Positions 2,256 to 10,655 of a stretch of DNA of 37,666 nucleotides are shown here, piece after piece. Position numbers and translations under genes: made by a program. Position 1 is the stretch's first letter; each line of letters begins with the position of its first letter. The notes under the pieces were generated by a model. That model saw nothing but the letters and a program-made list of their open reading frames with translations. It ran no database searches and was not told where the DNA came from. The stretch lies in UHGV virus genome UHGV-0324630; one strand, 5' to 3'. Source of the stretch: a virus.

Positions 2256-2660
2256 TCACCTACCCTTAGTTTCGTTATAGTCACGACCAGCGATACGGTT
2301 ATTACCACCAGAAATATTTAACTCACGTCCTGATGGCTGAGTTTCCTTTTCACTGATCGCACCTTTTAAAGCCCCAATCACCGCGTTTTTCACATCTAAC
2401 GAAGCTGCTCGAAAGCGAGTAATCAATTCCTGCTCATCATCGTTATAAGTTTCAGGTGAGTGAATTCCCAACACAACATACTGAACATCAAGGCCAAAAC
2501 GAGACAGCGCTGCCAAATACGCAGCATCAGGAAAGCTATCTCCTTTCTCATATCTAAGCTGAGTTAGCTTTTTGACTCCACCAATGTCGCTCATGGCAAC
2601 TTGACTAAGTCCCAATCTTTCCCTTTCCTCACGCAACCGCTGACCAATATCATTTTTCAT
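2256..2660 (-). CDS. XRE-family helix-turn-helix transcriptional regulator; probable lysogeny repressor (P2 C / 186 CI functional analogue)
   Basis: 134-aa ORF; N-terminal IGQRLREERERLGLSQVAMSDIGGVKKLTQLRYEKG is a typical XRE HTH; transcribed divergently from the RHH/Cox-like genes and toward int, as in P2-like immunity regions. Confidence 0.8.
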   Translation of the reverse strand: MKNDIGQRLREERERLGLSQVAMSDIGGVKKLTQLRYEKGDSFPDAAYLAALSRFGLDVQYVVLGIHSPETYNDDEQELITRFRAASLDVKNAVIGALKGAISEKETQPSGRELNISGGNNRIAGRDYNETKGR

Positions 2661-4924: not shown

Positions 4925-5187
4925 CCATTCTGGACTACATCGCTACTCATCCGGGGTGTAGCGGCGGAGAGATCGCCGCAGCACTGAATACCCCAACCAC
5001 AGCCATTAATGCTGAGTTACGCCGACTTTGGCGCGGCGGCTTAGTCATCAGAACAAACCGCAGCACAGGTGGTCGCGCTCGCAAAACAGGAGGCAAGGCT
5101 TCTTACCACGTAAACCCGATGCCGTTCGGGTGTAGCAATCCACTTACTCACATGTTTAACCAGCTACTGAAGGAAGCCAGAGCATGA
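4921..5187 (+). CDS. Small winged-helix-like DNA-binding protein (putative)
   Basis: 88-aa ORF; ILDYIATHPGCSGGEIAAALNTPTTAINAELRRLWRGGLVIR resembles a winged-helix recognition unit; ATGA coupling on both sides. Confidence 0.55.
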   Translation: MTILDYIATHPGCSGGEIAAALNTPTTAINAELRRLWRGGLVIRTNRSTGGRARKTGGKASYHVNPMPFGCSNPLTHMFNQLLKEARA

Positions 5188-5483
5188 GCACCATCAACCA
5201 CCAGAAGCTACGCGAACTGGCATTTGCCCTGCAACGAATGGCAACGCCTCAAAAATTACTGGCATTTCGCGCAATGCTCTCGCCGTCTGCTGTGCTGGCA
5301 CTGCTGGATCAGCTGGAGCACGCCAGAACCACGGCTCCAGCCATTCGCCTCACGCTCCATCATGAAATCGCTGATTTCTGCGCAACGCTGGGGGCACCTG
5401 GCGAACCGGAAACGCCGGAAGCAATGCAGCAAGAGCTGCTGCAACGCATCGATAACGTTTTTGATTTTTTTCTGAACCAGTAA
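5184..5483 (+). CDS. Hypothetical early protein
   Basis: 99-aa ORF, ATGA-coupled to the upstream gene. Confidence 0.55.
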   Translation: MSTINHQKLRELAFALQRMATPQKLLAFRAMLSPSAVLALLDQLEHARTTAPAIRLTLHHEIADFCATLGAPGEPETPEAMQQELLQRIDNVFDFFLNQ

Positions 5484-5605
5484 GAAACCAGAACATGCAC
5501 ACACAAAAAAACCGCTTGCCATGCCGCAATCGGTCAGGTTACATTTCCGCTGCACCTCATAAAACGGGTGCCGGGATTCTCAACCCGATACAGAGCAAAG
5601 CGCAT

Positions 5606-5626
5606 AACCGCGCTAGCGGTTTTTTT
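5606..5626 (+). terminator. Intrinsic terminator-like hairpin (AACCGC-gcta-GCGGTT followed by a T-run)
   Basis: GC-rich 6-bp stem, 4-nt loop, then about 7 T; 123 nt downstream of the stop at 5483. Confidence 0.5.
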
Positions 5627-5805
5627 GTGCGTACTGTATTGCCACGTCTTTTTCGCGTCAGAATTATGGCGGGGCGTACGGGGCCGACTTCGGTCGGGCC
5701 GGATTCTTTGCTCTCCGGTGTTGAGAACCCTGTACGTCTCGCCACCCCGAGATTCTCAACTCTGGATGGTGAGTTATTTCTATCACCGAGCAAAGAGGCC
5801 ACACC

Positions 5806-6036
5806 ATGGCAGACCGCAAACAGCACCGCGCTATCGCGGAGCGTCGTCACATCCAGACTGAAATCAACCGCAGACTTTCCCGCGCATCACGCGTCGCGCA
5901 AATCATGCACATCAATATGCTGCATGAGCGCAGCCACGCACTATCAAACATTTATTCCGCCTCTGTTTTCAGCTATCTGGCGGATGATCTGCACGAGTTT
6001 CAACAGCTCATCCAGCAGCAAAACAAACTCCATTAA
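5806..6036 (+). CDS. Hypothetical small basic protein upstream of the replication genes
   Basis: 76-aa ORF with AAGAGG RBS 7 nt upstream. Confidence 0.55.
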   Translation: MADRKQHRAIAERRHIQTEINRRLSRASRVAQIMHINMLHERSHALSNIYSASVFSYLADDLHEFQQLIQQQNKLH

Positions 6037-6108
6037 TTCCTGTTCCGGGCCTTTCCTGCACCTTGCGGCGGGAGGCCTTCGCACATCTGTAACAAGAGGA
6101 TTGCCGCA

Positions 6109-6474
6109 ATGATTCTCGCCAACGACTTTCTTGAATACCTGCTCAACACAGAACGTGATCTTGCCGCTCGCGTGCGTGATCGTTATGACATGTACCTGAA
6201 ATCCCTGCCTGTACCGCAGCTCGCTGACGGAAAGATTGTTATTGATGGTCGCTACATGATTGACAGCCACGAGGGAAATTACAGGCTTTACCGCATTGAA
6301 GGTGGCACCCCGACCGTTATTGGCATTTACCAGCGCCCATCCTCTGCAATCGTCGATGTGATTGCCGACAGCATCCGCATCACACATCGCCATGCCGACA
6401 CAGAAGACACCGTGCTGGAAATTCAGCGGCTGGCTACAGCCTGCCGCGACACCCTGAATGGCATGACGAAGTAA
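6109..6474 (+). CDS. Hypothetical protein preceding gpA
   Basis: 121-aa ORF with AGAGGA RBS. Confidence 0.6.
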   Translation: MILANDFLEYLLNTERDLAARVRDRYDMYLKSLPVPQLADGKIVIDGRYMIDSHEGNYRLYRIEGGTPTVIGIYQRPSSAIVDVIADSIRITHRHADTEDTVLEIQRLATACRDTLNGMTK

Positions 6475-6480
6475 ATCACT

Positions 6481-9303
6481 ATGACGGCAGAGTACATCAG
6501 GGACTGGCAACAACCGCGCCACGCAGTGGGGCGTGAAGGAACGGGGATCCCCGCTCCTGAATCTGCGCTTTCCTCCTGGCTGGATGCCTACCGGGCAGAG
6601 AACGAGCGCCGCCAGGAAATGGCTGATGCGGCGTTCTCCGCCACACCGCTGGGCAACCTGATTAATAAAAGCCTGGACGCACAGGAAAAACAGGACAAAG
6701 CCATCACACTGGCAGGAGACGCCAGAAAACAGGCACGCGGCGCGGTGGATGAAGCCATGGCCTCGCTGCGCCTGCTGCCGTCCTATTTGCGCGATCCACT
6801 TATTCGTCACCTCTCCTTCCTGCGCAAAAAACAGGAAGCCGATCGCCGGAAAGGCAAAAAGAGCTGGCAGGCAGAACGCTATGCACGCGGAACCCTGCGC
6901 AAGATATTCGATCGCATAAACCGCACCGACAGCCGCTGGCTGACACCGGGTTATCGCTCCCTTGCCGGACGCGAACGCCTGGACGATTTGCTTTACCTGC
7001 CGCAGCTCAACAAGCACCAGATACAGACGCTGGCTACCATGACGGCGGCGATGTTCAGCAGCACCTTCGAAAAACTCTGCGATGGTTTTGGCGCGACCGA
7101 TGGCGAGCTGACCATGGATGTAACCCTGAAGGCGTATCAGATGCTGGCCCGCATGGCGTTACACCTGCACGCCATGCCTCCACATTATGACGCACTGACA
7201 ACAGACAAAGACCGGAGGAACGAACCGGACACGGAGCTGCTGCCAGGCGCAATCCTTCGCCTGACCTGTGCGGAATGGTGGAAACGCAAACTGTGGCTGT
7301 TACGTTGTGAGTGGCGGGAAGAACAACTTCGCGCCGCCTGTCTGGTTTCCAGAAAAACATCGCCCTATCTGAGCCAGGACGCGTTAAGCGAGTTTCGCGC
7401 ACAGCGCGAGAAAACACGCGATTTCCTGAAAAGTTTCATGCTGGAAAACGAAGACGGGTTCACGATTGATCTCGAGACAGTGTATTACGCGGGAGTAAGT
7501 AACCCGGTTCACCGTAAGGCAGAAATGATGGCCACCATGAAGGGGCTGGAACTTCTGGCCGAAGCCCGTGGCGACAAAGCGGTGTTTCTGACTGTCACCT
7601 GCCCGTCAAAATACCACGCCACAACAGAGAACGGTCATCCGAATCCCAAATGGAACGGGGCCACCATGCGCGACTCCAGCGATTACCTGGTTAACACGTT
7701 TTTTGCGGCGGTCCGCAAGAAACTGAACCGCGACGGCCTGCGCTGGTATGGCATCCGCACGGTGGAGCCTCACCATGACGGCACCGTGCACTGGCATATG
7801 ATGGTCTTTGCTCATCCGGAAGAAATCGACACCATTGTGTCCCACACCCGTGATATTGCCATTCAGGAAGATCGTCACGAGCTGGGTGATGATATTACCC
7901 CACGCTTTAAGGCGGAGTACGTCGACGGCTCAAAAGGCACACCGACCAGCTACATCGCCACCTACATCGGGAAAAACCTGGACAGCCGTGCCGTGGATGG
8001 CATCGACCCGAAAACGGGCAAGCCACGCGTTGACCACGAAACCGGAAAATCAATGGCCGAGAGCGTGGAACGCGCCATCGGCTGGGCGCGCCTTCACCGG
8101 GTCCGCCAGTTCCAGTTTTTTGGTATCCCCTCCCGTCAGGTGTGGCGTGAGCTGCGTCGCCTTGCCAGCCAGATGGCACGCAACCCGGAAGGCCCACAAC
8201 GGCTGAAGGATGACGCAATGGATGCGGTTCTTGCTGCCGCTGATGCCGGATGTTTTGCCACCTACATAGAGAAACAGGGCGGCGTACTTGTTCCACGCAA
8301 GGACTACCTGGTTCGCACCGCCTACGACCTCGCAGATGAACTGAATGATTACGGCGAACAGAGCGTACAGATTTACGGGATCTGGTCACCACTCATCGGG
8401 GAATCCTCTCGTGTGTGCACGCATCCGGATAACTGGAAGCTGGTAAGACGTAAACCGGAAACGGAAGACAGCGCCCGCGAAAATGGTTTTGACCTTCAGG
8501 GCGGCCCTGCCGCCCCTTGGACTCGTGGCAATAACTGTCCCCGTGTACAGGAAACGGACAACAACGGGACAGAACAGCCGGAAGAACGGCCAGCACCGTG
8601 GCCGCAGCTCCCTGACGGCGTTGAAGTGAACGAATGGATGCGCTCACTGAAACGGCACGAACGCCGGGCGCTGATGCGTTCGCTTCGTGACAAACAGGCA
8701 AAAAACAGCAGTGATGAAATGCAGAGCTGGACACAGAGCCGCAAACAGCAGCGGCCTTTGCCTGATAACCACGAATTACTCGCTAAAGAATGGCGGGAGT
8801 CTGCTGAATCTCTCGGCCTGCATATCGGTGAACAACAGATGCAGCACCTGTTACGGGGCGGCAGTCTGTACGTTGACGGCAGCATCATTGCACCGCAGGG
8901 ATTTGAAATTATACGCAAACCGGATACCCGCCCGGACAGCCGAATCACGCAGCTCTGGCAGCGCCTGAGCCGTAATCACGGCGTAAGCAGCACGGAGATC
9001 CGCCATAACCCGGTCGCCAGCTATCTGGCACAGCTGGGGGCATCAGCCCCTGAAGCCGCCGCACGCCTGGCATCCACACTTCAGCAGGACCAGAACACCA
9101 TGAAAACACCCGTTACCGTGCTTTCTGACATGCTGCGCGCCATCCGCGACGCAGAGCACGCACAGAGAATCAGTGAAACCACTGAACGCGCCCGCCGCAA
9201 AGCAGACCTGCTGCGGGGTGGCCTGACCAGTGGAAACAATAAACAGACAGAAACGGGACTCACGAATCCCGTAAATGAGCAAAAAACGCGCAGCGATATA
9301 TGA
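6481..9303 (+). CDS. A: Rolling-circle replication initiation endonuclease (P2 gpA family), with a long C-terminal extension
   Basis: 940-aa ORF; HUH-type motif GTVHWHMMVFAHP and paired-tyrosine motif TSYIATYIGKN typical of P2 A-type Rep proteins. Longer than P2 gpA (about 760 aa by my memory). Confidence 0.9.
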   Translation: MTAEYIRDWQQPRHAVGREGTGIPAPESALSSWLDAYRAENERRQEMADAAFSATPLGNLINKSLDAQEKQDKAITLAGDARKQARGAVDEAMASLRLLPSYLRDPLIRHLSFLRKKQEADRRKGKKSWQAERYARGTLRKIFDRINRTDSRWLTPGYRSLAGRERLDDLLYLPQLNKHQIQTLATMTAAMFSSTFEKLCDGFGATDGELTMDVTLKAYQMLARMALHLHAMPPHYDALTTDKDRRNEPDTELLPGAILRLTCAEWWKRKLWLLRCEWREEQLRAACLVSRKTSPYLSQDALSEFRAQREKTRDFLKSFMLENEDGFTIDLETVYYAGVSNPVHRKAEMMATMKGLELLAEARGDKAVFLTVTCPSKYHATTENGHPNPKWNGATMRDSSDYLVNTFFAAVRKKLNRDGLRWYGIRTVEPHHDGTVHWHMMVFAHPEEIDTIVSHTRDIAIQEDRHELGDDITPRFKAEYVDGSKGTPTSYIATYIGKNLDSRAVDGIDPKTGKPRVDHETGKSMAESVERAIGWARLHRVRQFQFFGIPSRQVWRELRRLASQMARNPEGPQRLKDDAMDAVLAAADAGCFATYIEKQGGVLVPRKDYLVRTAYDLADELNDYGEQSVQIYGIWSPLIGESSRVCTHPDNWKLVRRKPETEDSARENGFDLQGGPAAPWTRGNNCPRVQETDNNGTEQPEERPAPWPQLPDGVEVNEWMRSLKRHERRALMRSLRDKQAKNSSDEMQSWTQSRKQQRPLPDNHELLAKEWRESAESLGLHIGEQQMQHLLRGGSLYVDGSIIAPQGFEIIRKPDTRPDSRITQLWQRLSRNHGVSSTEIRHNPVASYLAQLGASAPEAAARLASTLQQDQNTMKTPVTVLSDMLRAIRDAEHAQRISETTERARRKADLLRGGLTSGNNKQTETGLTNPVNEQKTRSDI

Positions 9304-9379: not shown

Positions 9380-10339
9380 ATGAAAATTTGTATCGACGAC
9401 GGCTCCACCAACATCAAGCTGGCATGGACTGAGAACGGCGAACGCCGCAACGCCATCAGCCCGAACAGCTTCAAGTCGGAATGGTCTGCGCCGTTCGGTG
9501 GCACGCAGCCCGCGAACTACATGCTTGATGGCGTGCGCTATGGTTTTGATCCTGTCAGCGATCGCTTTGTCCAGACGACCGACACGCAATACCAATACAG
9601 CGATGTGAATGTCATTGCCATTCATCACGCGCTGGTCAAATCAGGCATCACGCCACAGGAGGTGGATGTGGTTGTCACCCTGCCACTGAGCGAGTATTTC
9701 GACACAAACGCACAGCCGGACATGGCCAACATCAACCGCAAAAAAGCGAACGTTATGCGCCCGGTGGAGTACCAGAACGGCAAAGCATTCACTATCCGTA
9801 ACGTACGGGTTATGCCTGAATCTATTCCGGCTGGCTTTAAAGCACTGGCTGACATGAGTCCGTTTGAATCCCTGCTGATTGTGGATTTAGGCGGAACCAC
9901 GCTGGATGTGGCAAAGGTTCAGGGACAACTGGCAGGTATCAGCCAGGTGTTTTGCGATCCACACGTAGGCGTTTCCCTGATGGCCGATGCAGTACTGTCG
10001 GTGATGGCCACTAACGGTATGCGTACCAGTCACCACATCGCCAATACCATTATCGAACATCGCCATGATGAAGCTTGGCTGCGCCAGCACATCCACAATG
10101 ACGCGCATTACGCCAGCCTGATGGCGGTTATTCGTGAAAAGGAAGAAACACTGAAACAACGCGTGATCCGCGCGCTGGCGGGTTTTTCGGGTTACGGGCG
10201 GGTGATGGTTGTCGGTGGCGGAGCGGAGATTGTGGCACCCGCTATCCGCGAAGCCTGCGGGGTTAATGCGACTTTCATCGCGGACGGGGTGCCACAGTTT
10301 GCTCTGGTTAATGGGCTGTACGCAATGGACAAGGAGTAA
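9380..10339 (+). CDS. parM: ParM/StbA-family actin-like ATPase (type II partition NTPase)
   Basis: 319-aa ORF; N-terminus MKICIDDGSTNIKLAW...ISPNSFKSEW...YQYSDVNVIAIHHAL and later PESIPAGF, IVDLGGTTLD, FSGY..VMVVGGGAE align closely with my memory of plasmid R1 ParM (MLVFIDDGSTNIKLQW...ISPNSFKREW...). Confidence 0.9.
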   Translation: MKICIDDGSTNIKLAWTENGERRNAISPNSFKSEWSAPFGGTQPANYMLDGVRYGFDPVSDRFVQTTDTQYQYSDVNVIAIHHALVKSGITPQEVDVVVTLPLSEYFDTNAQPDMANINRKKANVMRPVEYQNGKAFTIRNVRVMPESIPAGFKALADMSPFESLLIVDLGGTTLDVAKVQGQLAGISQVFCDPHVGVSLMADAVLSVMATNGMRTSHHIANTIIEHRHDEAWLRQHIHNDAHYASLMAVIREKEETLKQRVIRALAGFSGYGRVMVVGGGAEIVAPAIREACGVNATFIADGVPQFALVNGLYAMDKE

Positions 10340-10343
10340 ACCA

Positions 10344-10655
10344 ATGACGACACCAACCAGACGGATAAGTTTCTATCTGAAGCCCGCCGCCGTCAAGAAC
10401 GAAGGCGAAGCATGCGCCTGGCTGGACAGCCTTACACCAGAAGCCCGTAAAAACGGCCAACGCGTGGCTTTTCTGGCCGGGCTGGCGCTTCTGAAAATGA
10501 ATCCGGCAGAGGCTTACCGACTGGCAGCATGGGCTGACGATGAGGCGTTATCAGTGACACAAACCAGGACAGAACGCCCCCTGTCACAGCCAGTACCAAC
10601 CGCACAGATAACCAGTCAGATGGCCGGAAATATCAGGGCGTTATTTCCTGAATAA
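10344..10655 (+). CDS. parR: ParR-like centromere-binding adaptor (RHH family)
   Basis: 103-aa ORF from ATG 10344 (AAGGAG RBS); RISFYLKPAAVKNEGEACAWLDSLTPEARKNGQRVAFLAGLALLKMNP and C-terminal IRALFPE resemble R1 ParR (IAFKLNPDV...DSIPQGERSRLNRAALTAGLALYRQDP, LRSLFPKE) from memory. The longer track ORF from 10209 overlaps parM and is probably not the true start. Confidence 0.8.
   Translation: MTTPTRRISFYLKPAAVKNEGEACAWLDSLTPEARKNGQRVAFLAGLALLKMNPAEAYRLAAWADDEALSVTQTRTERPLSQPVPTAQITSQMAGNIRALFPE

Follow-up and report, generated by a model that had tools for sequence, protein, structure and literature searches.

The gap of about 320 bp between the early operon and the replication genes (positions 5484-5805 of the window, the whole 37,666-nt stretch of DNA analysed) most probably holds a P4/P1-type RNA immunity module: two phage small RNAs together with their target sites. 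The switch is the same as that of P1, P7 and P4, placed here ahead of an anti-repressor-like gene and the replication genes, and is a previously unannotated example of a known system. The host element is a P2-like (P88-like) prophage of Escherichia coli O157:H7 that has its own protein repressor (2256-2660). Matches to the stretch occur in 1296 of 5426 complete E. coli genomes, and the block from about 5500 to 5805 is conserved as a unit behind differing upstream genes, as in P88 and Shae_phiSM. RefSeq leaves this conserved stretch unannotated, and some GenBank phage records place hypothetical CDSs over it; the present analysis assigns it a function. The features are as follows.

5495-6112, + strand: eta-like reading frame of 205 codons, from the ORF list, stop-free in relatives
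5516-5545, + strand: promoter-like site TTGCCA-18-TACATT from the promoter scan, with a start near 5552
5552-5626, + strand: IsrK/P4-SeqA-like small RNA, about 75 nt (Rfam RF01394)
5577-5584, + strand: a1 box UUCUCAAC, complementary to a'
5592-5600, + strand: b1 box AGAGCAAAG, complementary to b'
5606-5626, + strand: intrinsic terminator, AACCGC-GCUA-GCGGUU then U7, at the 3' end of the Rfam isrK model
5662-5749, + strand: C4/P4-CI-type antisense RNA (Rfam RF01695)
5704-5714, + strand: b' specificity loop of C4, UCUUUGCUCU, carried by hairpin 2 and able to pair with both b1 and b2
5720-5727, + strand: a' specificity segment of C4, GUUGAGAA, in the single-stranded linker 3' of hairpin 2
5753-5760, + strand: a2 target box, complementary to a'
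5788-5796 (element 5788-5798), + strand: b2 target box GAGCAAAGA, overlapping the Shine-Dalgarno (SD) sequence of the epsilon-like gene
5806-6036, + strand: gene for a P4-epsilon-like "derepression" protein of 76 aa (Pfam PF25738), the first gene under b2
6047-6078, + strand: GC-rich spacer hairpin, downstream of the epsilon-like gene and ahead of orf121
6109-6474, + strand: orf121, presumed to depend on the switch
6481-9303, + strand: replication endonuclease gene A (Pfam Phage_GPA, E = 2e-131)

An Rfam scan, which the original prediction had proposed, returned two curated families in the gap, isrK and C4 antisense RNA, both on the + strand, full-length and above gathering. Specifically, the isrK model (RF01394, an Hfq-binding RNA) scored 63 bits against a gathering threshold of 50 (E = 2e-11, model positions 1-77 of 77) and the C4 model (RF01695) 78.5 bits against 45 (E = 6e-14, positions 1-87 of 87). 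For comparison, the C4 model gives 68.8 bits for P1 c4 and 74.9 bits for P4 CI. The c4-a1b1 motif (RF03163) reached 15.9 bits in the window, below its gathering threshold of 46.7, versus 44.1 bits in P4 and 51 in P1; the a1/b1 boxes are present here and are better described by the isrK model. None of the Rfam riboswitch and attenuator models matched, all scores being sub-threshold (e.g., manA-II, 18 bits versus 100), and the sub-threshold scores of CRISPR-DR33, STnc410, manA-II and Hrs13 were treated as noise. With the same models, P2 and 186 matched neither isrK nor C4. Thus, one option of the original prediction, a small RNA, was on the right track, the region encoding two RNAs of curated families; the antisense logic linking the repeats had been missed.

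The structured, repeat-containing region described in the original prediction was recovered with every listed element within a few bases of its predicted place. In the first repeat unit, GGATTCTCAAC occupies 5574-5584 and GAGCAAAG 5593-5600; inverse copies follow at 5706-5714 (CTTTGCTC(T)) and 5720-5727 (GTTGAGAA), and the third unit comprises TTCTCAAC at 5753-5760 and GAGCAAAG(A) at 5788-5796. The internal terminator appears as a terminator-like hairpin with a T7 run at 5606-5626, and the GC hairpin CCGAC-UUCG-GUCGG lies at 5684-5697. The clustering of the repeats exceeds chance: TTCTCAAC has four copies on both strands of the 37.7 kb (1.15 expected), three of them within 184 bp, and GAGCAAAG has six (1.73 expected), three within 203 bp. 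These repeats are antisense loop/target pairs, with a1/b1 in the IsrK-like RNA, a'/b' in C4, and a2/b2 downstream. The boxes a1/a'/a2 and b1/b'/b2 are complementary through exact matches of 8-9 nt; the second target set, a1/b1, lies upstream of C4 on the same predicted transcript.

The predicted C4 RNA has a 17-bp closing stem, a UUCG hairpin (5684-5697) and a second hairpin (5698-5719). Its minimum free energy structure is the family consensus, in which b' occupies the loop of the second hairpin and a' the 3' single-stranded linker. The mature species is predicted to span approximately 5668-5746, based on alignment with the annotated 77-nt P1 c4, and its tRNA-like acceptor stem and GCCACC 3' end align with the annotated ends of that RNA. 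For the C4 segment, the folding energy is -47.6 kcal/mol (z = -4.9) on the + strand versus -34.7 kcal/mol (z = -2.6) on the - strand. In 15 relatives, pairing is complete (100%) at each of the 27 internal pairs, and three of these pairs show compensatory changes. The IsrK-like RNA (fold z = -2.7) comprises two 5' hairpins, with a1 in the loop of the second, then single-stranded b1 and the intrinsic terminator; its three hairpins are likewise 100% paired in the 15 relatives, in which the terminator stem is invariant. An inverted repeat (5499-5519 / 5612-5632) flanks the sRNA gene, and its long-range pairing might act as an anti-terminator.

Covariation was counted in 15 P88-like relatives over the four helices a'-a2, b'-b2, a1-a' and b1-b', which together comprise 34 positions. 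Their backbone is conserved, whereas the six boxes vary in concert and keep their complementarity. The four box helices were 91-100% paired, versus 26-55% when the partner was slid, and both sides changed at 19 of the 34 positions; the observed covariation score was reached by none of 500 shuffles. Co-variation occurred at four of eight positions in a1-a' (up to four pair types) and at four of eight in a'-a2. Both-side changes were found at six of nine positions in b1-b' (100% paired) and at five of nine in b'-b2 (99% paired). Outside the terminal pair, the departures were seven G-U pairs and two non-pairs; as they are mostly G-U, the pattern fits RNA pairing. Folding and comparison of relatives, checks that the original prediction had also suggested, gave a stable C4 fold and boxes that co-vary and stay complementary.

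A protein-binding array had been suggested as well, in which a sequence-specific protein would bind the repeats as DNA, for instance as operators or as iterons close to the replication genes, and the RNA-family matches would be incidental. Concerted change of direct and inverted 8-9-mers would also be expected of co-evolving operators, and the inverted repeat flanking the sRNA gene could be read in the same way. We nevertheless consider this explanation very improbable. The two covariance-model matches are independent and at gathering level, the boxes coincide precisely with the loop and linker of a conserved RNA fold with compensatory stem changes, departures from pairing are predominantly G-U (7 versus 2), and the fold energy is strongly strand-asymmetric. 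Furthermore, the SD of the following ORF is in every case covered by b2, the box types are not matched by a co-varying DNA-binding protein, the neighbouring proteins being 92-95% identical across types, and in P1, P7 and P4 the homologues have been proven to be RNAs.

The 5516-5545 site is a candidate promoter, matching the consensus with a weak -10 hexamer, TACATT. This hexamer is invariant in 15 of 15 relatives and the whole site in the 13 that are close; L029 and L125 diverge at the two bases that follow TTGCC and over most of the spacer. The site is the counterpart of P4 PLE and P1 P1c4: at the equivalent position, P4 carries TTGCCT-18-TATAGT and P1 the annotated P1c4. A second promoter-like site, at 5639-5667, was rejected as the C4 promoter because its start falls inside C4 and its -35 hexamer is unconserved (TCGCCA in P88). 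The promoter scan detected no promoter-like site between 5668 and 6600. A plain inter-operon terminator or leader, with the early operon terminated at 5606-5626 and no regulatory part for the other structures, would account for the presence of a good intrinsic terminator 120 nt beyond the last early gene. It is scarcely credible as a full explanation: it leaves unexplained the conserved promoter-like site, the C4 fold, the six co-varying boxes, and the conservation of the block as a unit behind the different upstream genes of P88 and Shae_phiSM.

The closest system by gene context is the experimentally defined immunity region of P4, in which both Rfam families recur upstream of epsilon with order and strand unchanged, and the a/b boxes occupy equivalent places. 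In both, a promoter of the same form lies just upstream, a1 is in the loop of the second 5' hairpin, a long ORF (eta or eta-like) runs from upstream of the promoter through the RNA genes, and an epsilon homologue and then a replication gene follow. In P4, b2 lies on the SD of kil, the first downstream ORF, whereas in the window it lies on the SD of the epsilon-like gene, which is itself the first gene after b2. The two also differ in that P4 is a satellite and the window belongs to a full-size P2-like phage; that the eta-like frame passes through the epsilon-like gene in a different reading frame and is coupled to orf121, whereas P4 eta ends at epsilon; and that the replication protein is a rolling-circle nickase, gpA, rather than the alpha primase-helicase. 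Moreover, orf121 is without a P4 counterpart, showing no similarity to P4 ORF151 or ORF106.

The P1 record annotates a1, b1, c4, a2, b2, icd and ant at nearly the same spacings as in the window, and P1 b2 ends 10 nt before icd, the same geometry as here. In P1 immI (c4-icd-ant) and its P7 counterpart, the module forms a second immunity layer beside a protein repressor, as it would in the window. By contrast, the upstream part matches c4-a1b1 in P1 and isrK in the window, and the controlled genes are icd and the Ant antirepressor in P1 versus, presumably, the epsilon-like and replication genes in the window. In a three-way DNA alignment of the window, P4 and P1, only the C4 part aligns; the upstream parts were compared by eye and through Rfam.

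The third related locus, in the Salmonella prophage Gifsy-1, also encodes an IsrK family RNA with a promoter (promoter-like in the window) and a terminator, which is leaky in Gifsy-1 (PMC4825925). Downstream of isrK is a C4-like, processed species of about 80 nt, STnc1160, that is complementary to IsrK, and in both loci an ORF crosses the C4 segment and its stop overlaps the next start as AUGA (PMC4825925). Gifsy-1 is lambdoid whereas the window is P2-like, and the upstream ORF (uORF) has 45 codons versus about 148-205 in the window. The gene controlled in Gifsy-1 encodes a Rha/AnrP-type antirepressor that switches on a Q-like antiterminator (PMC4825925). In the published model, IsrK is the activator and the C4-like segment is read as part of a translated uORF, without a demonstrated repressor role for the C4-like RNA (PMC4825925).

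It is possible, albeit somewhat unlikely, that the window works as such a positive switch only. In that case, the read-through RNA would fold on itself (a1/b1 with a'/b') and sequester the ribosome-binding site, the short IsrK-like RNA would open this fold in trans and turn on the epsilon-like gene, and C4 would act in cis and not be diffusible. The Gifsy-1 locus has been shown to work in this way, IsrK activating orf45/anrP translation 100-fold or more (PMC4825925). Consistent with this, the a1/b1-a'/b' covariation is as strong as that of a'/b'-a2/b2, and the frame through C4 is open in the window as orf45 is in Gifsy-1. However, the C4 fold is very stable and tRNA-like (z = -4.9), the window's C4 scores higher (78.5 bits) than P1's own trans-acting c4 (68.8 bits), and processed STnc1160, of about 80 nt, exists in Gifsy-1 too. 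In addition, the P4 CI RNA, from the closest relative by context, is a diffusible immunity factor. The positive switch and repression by C4 are not mutually exclusive.

The first gene that C4 would control starts with an ATG at 5806, and its SD, AAGAGG (5793-5798), lies inside or beside b2. The product scored 31.9 bits against PF25738 ("Derepression protein"; gathering 27), was 32% identical to P4 epsilon over 50 aa in BLASTP (E = 6e-9), and is named "derepression protein" in RefSeq; a profile search of genome contigs for epsilon-like proteins yielded four loci only. The epsilon-like protein is 95% identical between the window prophage and P88, whose repressors are without detectable similarity. 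Because of this identity despite unrelated repressors, the protein may not be an anti-repressor acting on its own phage's repressor, and binding and inactivation of a P2-type immunity repressor are in doubt. NCBIfam gave no match for the 205-codon ORF, the epsilon-like gene or orf121. The gap thus sits in the leader of an epsilon-like/orf121/gene A operon, as the original prediction of a leader controlling replication genes would have it; the prediction had overlooked the first controlled gene and a conserved reading frame. By analogy with the related phages, orf121 and gene A are presumed to depend on the switch. A strong spacer hairpin lies at the equivalent place in four divergent lineages, with unrelated sequences, and that of the window (6047-6078) is possibly a translation-sensitive pause or terminator, a role that we infer. 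Over 5780-6060, C outnumbers G, a bias that a Rho loading site could show.

The functional steps proposed for this prophage draw on homologues: those of the lysogen and of C4 on P1 c4-icd-ant, P4 seqA-cI-seqC-kil/eta-epsilon-alpha and Gifsy-1 isrK-orf45-anrP, and those involving the eta-like frame on its conserved openness and on P4 eta. In a lysogen, the constitutive promoter at about 5516-5545 would produce mainly the short IsrK-like RNA and some read-through RNA. The latter would be processed to stable C4, with RNase P generating the 5' end and an exonuclease the 3' end. C4 would pair with a2/b2 and block translation of the epsilon-like gene, and the untranslated, C-rich leader would be exposed to Rho-dependent termination, so that orf121 and gene A would be off; both the Rho dependence and the control of gene A are predicted by analogy. 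The a1/b1 boxes of the IsrK-like RNA would compete for the same C4 loops, and the IsrK:C4 ratio would therefore set a threshold, as IsrK does in Gifsy-1.

The original prediction found no convincing ORF in the region, yet an ORF at 5495-6112 crosses it and is open in all relatives examined. This eta-like frame begins upstream of the sRNA promoter, 11 nt beyond the stop codon of the early gene before it. Along its course it covers the IsrK-like RNA, C4 and a2/b2, then all of the epsilon-like gene, which is read in a different frame, and the spacer; its TGA (6110-6112) and the orf121 ATG (6109-6111) overlap as ATGA. No stop interrupts the frame in the 15 relatives or in five divergent lineages. 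Of 84 further loci, 82 keep it open with an ATGA end; of the two exceptions, one is an incomplete contig and the other (L134) has its stop 18 nt beyond the next ATG. When the epsilon-like gene was resampled synonymously, the probabilities of the frame being open were 0.081, 0.012, 0.063, 0.031 and 0.027 in the five divergent lineages, and its openness across that gene was judged significant. In some lineages, two of the three frames ahead of C4 are open; the strong part of the evidence therefore comes from the epsilon overlap, the spacer and the ATGA only. No obvious SD sequence precedes the ATG at 5495. The AUG at the 5' end of C4 (5666) was rejected as the start of the conserved frame: it is out of frame in L131 and L146, where the long frame is open from further upstream, and the frame from it is closed in P1 by a TAA in b', whereas it is open in the window.

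Judged from its sequence, the 5495-6112 frame is the positional counterpart of P4 eta, with which it shares a Pfam profile, a start upstream of the sRNA promoter and a path through the RNA genes in the corresponding frame. P4 eta is a 214-codon ORF (8812-8168) with MMM start codons and matches PF10554 (Phage_ASH) strongly, PF10554 being a translation of the eta frame. The eta-like frame scored 18.6 bits against this profile, below the gathering threshold of 26, in a match over residues 16-108, which correspond to the RNA module. It is improbable that the 205-aa product is a functional "Ash family" protein and the region mainly protein-coding. A frame open in all relatives, its annotation as a CDS in some GenBank records and the weak PF10554 match would fit this explanation. 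However, nucleotide conservation follows RNA structure and not codons, the boxes varying freely while stems are kept; the predicted peptide changes wholesale where the epsilon-like gene diverges between lineages; and the Pfam score is below threshold. As translation of the frame is already part of the explanation that we favour, only the function of the product is at issue.

In P4, translation of eta reportedly prevents premature termination of transcripts that start upstream, and it is this translation that is said to matter, not any known activity of the eta product. We tentatively suggest, as a conceivable though not the likelier case, that the eta-like frame is truly translated on transcripts from the early lytic promoter and provides a "bypass lane" past the IsrK terminator, C4, a2/b2 and the post-epsilon hairpin, with re-initiation at orf121/gene A via the ATGA. 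Such transcripts would contain the ATG at 5495; ribosomes on the frame would melt the terminator, C4 and the a2/b2 duplex, stop at the ATGA (6109-6112) and so pass translation on to orf121 and gene A. Lytic transcripts would thus be insensitive to the RNA immunity, as eta-like translation would melt these structures. If so, two small RNAs with their targets, an anti-repressor-like protein and an overlapping "conduit" ORF in another frame would all be encoded in a single segment, and the origin of a transcript would decide whether the replication genes obey or ignore RNA immunity. The conserved overlapping frame is a testable case of translation-dependent escape from such immunity.

With the C4-based switch as the preferred reading, the P88 group of P2-like phages has a second, RNA-based immunity layer ahead of the epsilon-like and replication genes that P2 and 186 are without. 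A survey of P4-like satellites found that only delta had clear homologues in P2-like phages (PMC8628076); the RNA cassette and the epsilon-like gene add to this picture. P2-like helpers and P4-like satellites share the cassette, and RNA-level cross-immunity would be possible where their loop types match.

P1/P7 heteroimmunity is determined by co-varying loops and targets (PMC12197685). By analogy, the co-varying a and b boxes probably define immunity specificity here, and their types may keep co-resident prophages orthogonal. Loop diversity is a plausible reason why poly-lysogens such as O157:H7 hold several modules without cross-talk, and the loop/target combinations amount to a natural set of orthogonal RNA repressor-target pairs. 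Among five Xuanwuvirus relatives, almost all differences fall within the six boxes and define four mutually consistent specificity types. In a wider survey of 119 IMG/VR loci carrying the C4 core, complementary a2 and b2 boxes were present at fixed offsets in 92, with a2 at +22/23 nt from C4 in most loci, and 65 loop combinations occurred. No combination of the epsilon class was common to other classes in this survey; the class itself comprised 10 combinations, built from seven b' types and seven a' types, and in all about 11 combinations are present in this class of phages.

When the whole window was scanned against Rfam at the curated thresholds, exactly two matches were obtained, both on the + strand and both inside the gap at 5484-5805. 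The predicted structured region does exist, and a system of a familiar type accounts for it: the gap holds an RNA immunity module of the C4/CI-IsrK/SeqA family that had gone unannotated. The elements listed in the original prediction were all found, in place or a few bases off. Its context had been under-described: it lies in a P2-like phage, where it immediately precedes an epsilon-like gene and gene A. The features of the locus are as follows, the six boxes being upstream targets (a1, b1), C4 specificity segments (a′, b′) and downstream targets (a2, b2).

5184-5483: early ORF, 99 aa, directly before the gap
5516-5545: promoter-like site TTGCCA-18-TACATT, predicted start coinciding with position 1 of the isrK model
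5552-5626, + strand: isrK (RF01394), 63 bits against a gathering score of 50
5577-5584, + strand: a1, UUCUCAAC, complementary to a′, in the loop of the second IsrK hairpin
5592-5600, + strand: b1, AGAGCAAAG, complementary to b′
5662-5749, + strand: C4 antisense RNA (RF01695), 78.5 bits against a gathering score of 45
5704-5714, + strand: b′, loop of the second C4 hairpin
5720-5727, + strand: a′, GUUGAGAA, single-stranded linker 3′ of the second C4 hairpin
5753-5760, + strand: a2, UUCUCAAC, complementary to a′
5788-5796, + strand: b2, GAGCAAAGA, complementary to b′
5806-6036: epsilon-like ORF, 76 aa, directly after the gap
6109-6474: orf121, 121 aa, next after the 76-aa ORF
6481-9303: replication endonuclease (gene A), P2 gpA family, 940 aa (Pfam Phage_GPA, E = 2e-131)

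The C4 segment folded into the family consensus, with a 17-bp closing stem, the previously noticed GC hairpin CCGAC-UUCG-GUCGG and a second hairpin. The energy of this fold was -47.6 kcal/mol (z = -4.9), and that of the opposite strand was 13 kcal/mol worse. The intrinsic terminator that had been predicted forms the 3′ end of the IsrK-like RNA; that the region is a plain terminator is poorly supported. Of the roles originally proposed, a leader/attenuator, a small RNA or a protein-binding array, the small RNA is borne out by the two Rfam matches, and a leader acting on the replication genes would fit as well. A second promoter-like match just upstream of C4 (TTGCCA-17-AATTAT, 5639-5667) was not conserved in P88-type relatives, has its predicted start inside the C4 stem, and is probably due to chance. 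Separately, a 21-nt inverted repeat of 90% complementarity joins 5499-5519 with 5612-5632 (also 5504-5532, - strand). Its arms are the A-tract upstream of the sRNA promoter and the 3′ arm of the IsrK terminator with its U-tract and flank. The flanks vary by lineage with complementarity kept (ACACAC/GUGCGU in the window, CACGUA/UACGUG in the divergent relatives L029 and L125), and the left arm, read on the - strand, is also a terminator-like hairpin with U7. Possible roles of this pairing are a leftward terminator or an alternative fold restricted to early-promoter transcripts.

Two 8-mers were strongly clustered: TTCTCAAC had four copies on both strands of the 37.7-kb window (1.15 expected window-wide) and GAGCAAAG had six (1.73 expected), with three copies of each lying within about 200 bp. 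In an alignment of the window with four Xuanwuvirus phages, the backbone was near-invariant and nearly all differences fell inside the six boxes, where they were mutually consistent and defined four specificity types in five sequences. Pairs were then counted in alignment A2, which comprises 15 distinct P88-like sequences. Helices within IsrK and within C4 were 100% paired, and inter-segment pairing was 91.7% for a′-a2, 99.3% for b′-b2, 90.8% for a1-a′ and 100% for b1-b′. Sliding one partner by 1 to 3 columns reduced inter-segment pairing to 26-55%. In each inter-segment helix, 4 to 6 positions were altered in both partners and as many as four pair types were seen, and the observed covariation score was reached by none of 500 shuffles. 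Excluding the terminal a-box pair, the departures from Watson-Crick pairing comprised seven G-U pairs versus two non-pairs. The clustered repeats could be read as protein-binding sites, the array of the original prediction, but this is poorly supported: the G-U-biased departures, the unequal folding of the two strands and the placement of boxes in loops argue for RNA-RNA pairing over protein-binding DNA repeats.

A wider survey, based on a pattern for the conserved C4 core, yielded 119 usable IMG/VR loci. In 92 of these, complementary a2 and b2 boxes lay at constant distances (+22/23 and about +53 to +57 nt). The survey recorded 65 distinct b′/a′ combinations. Loci with an epsilon-like first downstream gene had 10 combinations, drawn from seven types of b′ and seven of a′; 705R2 supplied an eleventh. 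No combination of this class was shared with the lambdoid or P4-like classes in the survey. The distinct combinations indicate that the loops behave as interchangeable specificity determinants. Heteroimmunity of P1 and P7 likewise rests on loop specificity (review PMC12197685); Citron and Schuster 1990 is cited for it in passages of PMC12197685 and PMC2864571. In some IMG/VR contigs the complete C4 module is present as two or three tandem copies that recur about every 656-659 nt (L019 4711-5402; L032 9728-11072), each with its own b′/a′ combination followed by a Rha/antirepressor-like N-terminus.

The 76-aa ORF matched Pfam PF25738 'Derepression protein' with 31.9 bits (gathering score 27) and was 32% identical to P4 epsilon over 50 aa (pairwise E = 6e-9). 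Because of this match, P4 was scanned for the same RNAs. Its immunity region contained isrK at 8692-8615 (60.8 bits) and then C4 at 8507-8420 (74.9 bits), the same two families in the same order as in the window, upstream of epsilon and the alpha replication gene. The P4 C4 match is the CI RNA; a and b boxes occupy equivalent places, with b2 on the AGGAGG of the 65-aa kil ORF. P4 SeqA RNA is a structural homologue of IsrK, and CI RNA, processed out of an untranslated transcript, pairs with seqA and seqC, causing premature termination, so that the replication genes stay silent in the lysogen (PMC4825925). The phage P1 record annotates the same layout (a1, b1, c4, a2, b2, icd, ant), b2 ending 10 nt before icd, with the note 'repression of icd ant translation'. 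In contrast, scans of the early and replication regions of P2 and 186, the classical relatives of the prophage, gave no C4 or isrK match, indicating that the P88 lineage carries the module as an accessory cassette. The module also occurs in P4-like satellites, in P1/P7 and in many lambdoid prophages, Stx phages among them.

By analogy with P1, P4 and Gifsy-1, transcription from the promoter at 5516-5545 would be constitutive, with partial read-through of the IsrK terminator and maturation of C4 by RNase P. In the window, b2 overlaps the Shine-Dalgarno AAGAGG (5793-5798), 7 nt before the ATG at 5806, and C4 pairing at a2/b2 would block epsilon-like translation. Rho-dependent polarity would then affect orf121 and gene A; the leader at 5780-6060 has a C>G skew, and a promoter scan found no promoter-like site for gene A over 5668-6600. 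The a1/b1 boxes of the IsrK-like RNA would titrate C4, and early-promoter transcripts may escape through translation of the eta-like frame. In the Salmonella prophage Gifsy-1, IsrK activates translation 100-fold or more (PMC4825925). Structure switching in cis by IsrK and repression in trans by C4 may each contribute.

Between the window and P88 (L002 5282-5512), the epsilon-like proteins are 95% identical and the C4 loops differ. No similarity was detectable between the immunity repressors, 134 aa in the window (2256-2660) and 93 aa for P88 C (L002 1170-1451). Such conservation despite dissimilar repressors is unlike an anti-repressor specific for its cognate repressor, and the epsilon-like protein may act on something other than the phage's own repressor. 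P88 also has a Cox protein.

The gap had been described as lacking a convincing ORF. The 205-codon eta-like frame at 5495-6112 was chance-like at first look, yet it is kept open in relatives: none of 15 had a stop across IsrK, C4 and a2/b2. The frame also spans the whole epsilon-like gene, in another frame, and the 72-nt spacer, and its terminal ATGA overlaps the start codon of the gene that follows. Both properties are kept in L029 and L125, in which the epsilon-like protein shares only 33-40% identity and a different gene follows, and indels between lineages preserve the frame. Among 84 further loci retrieved with an epsilon-like profile, 82 were open and ATGA-ended; one exception was a truncated contig, and the other, in Trabulsiella, was open with its stop 18 nt past the next ATG. 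With the epsilon-like protein fixed and synonymous codons resampled by the phage's own codon usage, the probability of a stop-free frame in five divergent lineages was 0.081, 0.012, 0.063, 0.031 and 0.027. The other alternative frame had 1-4 stops, as expected. In each of the eight lineages examined, an in-frame ATG precedes the sRNA promoter; except in P88 and L125, it lies 6-11 nt past the preceding gene's stop (six lineages). A purely coding reading of the region is poorly supported.

The window ORF matched Pfam PF10554 'Phage_ASH' weakly, over residues 16-108, exactly the RNA module. The P4 ORF 8812-8168 (L127) matched it strongly; three consecutive Met codons give predicted products of 197-199 aa, and we take this ORF to be eta. 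Forti et al. (J Bacteriol 1999) reportedly placed the start of eta upstream of PLE, with kil as its last part, and transcripts that start at the upstream promoter PLL are reported to be protected from Rho-dependent termination by translation of eta, which makes them immunity-insensitive. We read the window frame as a positional counterpart of P4 eta; unlike the latter, it crosses the epsilon-like gene in a different frame and is coupled to orf121. The PF10554 'Ash protein family' is a conceptual translation of the seqA, cI and seqC RNA region in the eta frame and is distinct from epsilon (PF25738). Thus the 'epsilon' marker of a satellite-detection study that employed PF10554 (PMC8628076) picks out the RNA immunity region. 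A GC-rich hairpin (6047-6078) lies in the spacer that separates the epsilon-like gene from orf121. Strong hairpins of unrelated sequence occur there in four lineages, the window included, and in the three others a short U-containing tail follows. The hairpin may terminate transcription in a translation-sensitive way or stabilise the mRNA 3′ end, and translation of the eta-like frame could melt it.

The 701-bp segment 5400-6100 was 100% identical to a prophage adjoining yecA in many E. coli O157:H7 genomes and was matched in 1296 of 5426 complete E. coli genomes. The nearest phages are P88-like Peduoviridae of the genus Xuanwuvirus. The gap has no RefSeq annotation, whereas hypothetical CDSs cover it in some GenBank phage records; for EDL933, C4 and isrK were only listed among the Rfam families found in an EHEC study (PMC5331693). 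The P88 CDS AIZ95121.1 (L003 418-606, - strand) is antisense to C4 and probably spurious, and the + strand 205-aa CDSs in GenBank records L004 and L006 (356-973) are the eta-like frame. An enterobacterial P88-like module with an epsilon-like gene 87% identical was found in L133 (NZ_JBQPOM010000071.1), a Firmicute assembly labelled Vagococcus sp., and is likely contamination. Finally, the prophage encodes a ParM-type plasmid segregation ATPase (9380-10339) and a RefSeq-annotated partition/stability protein (about 10344-10655), which suggests that it might persist as a plasmid.
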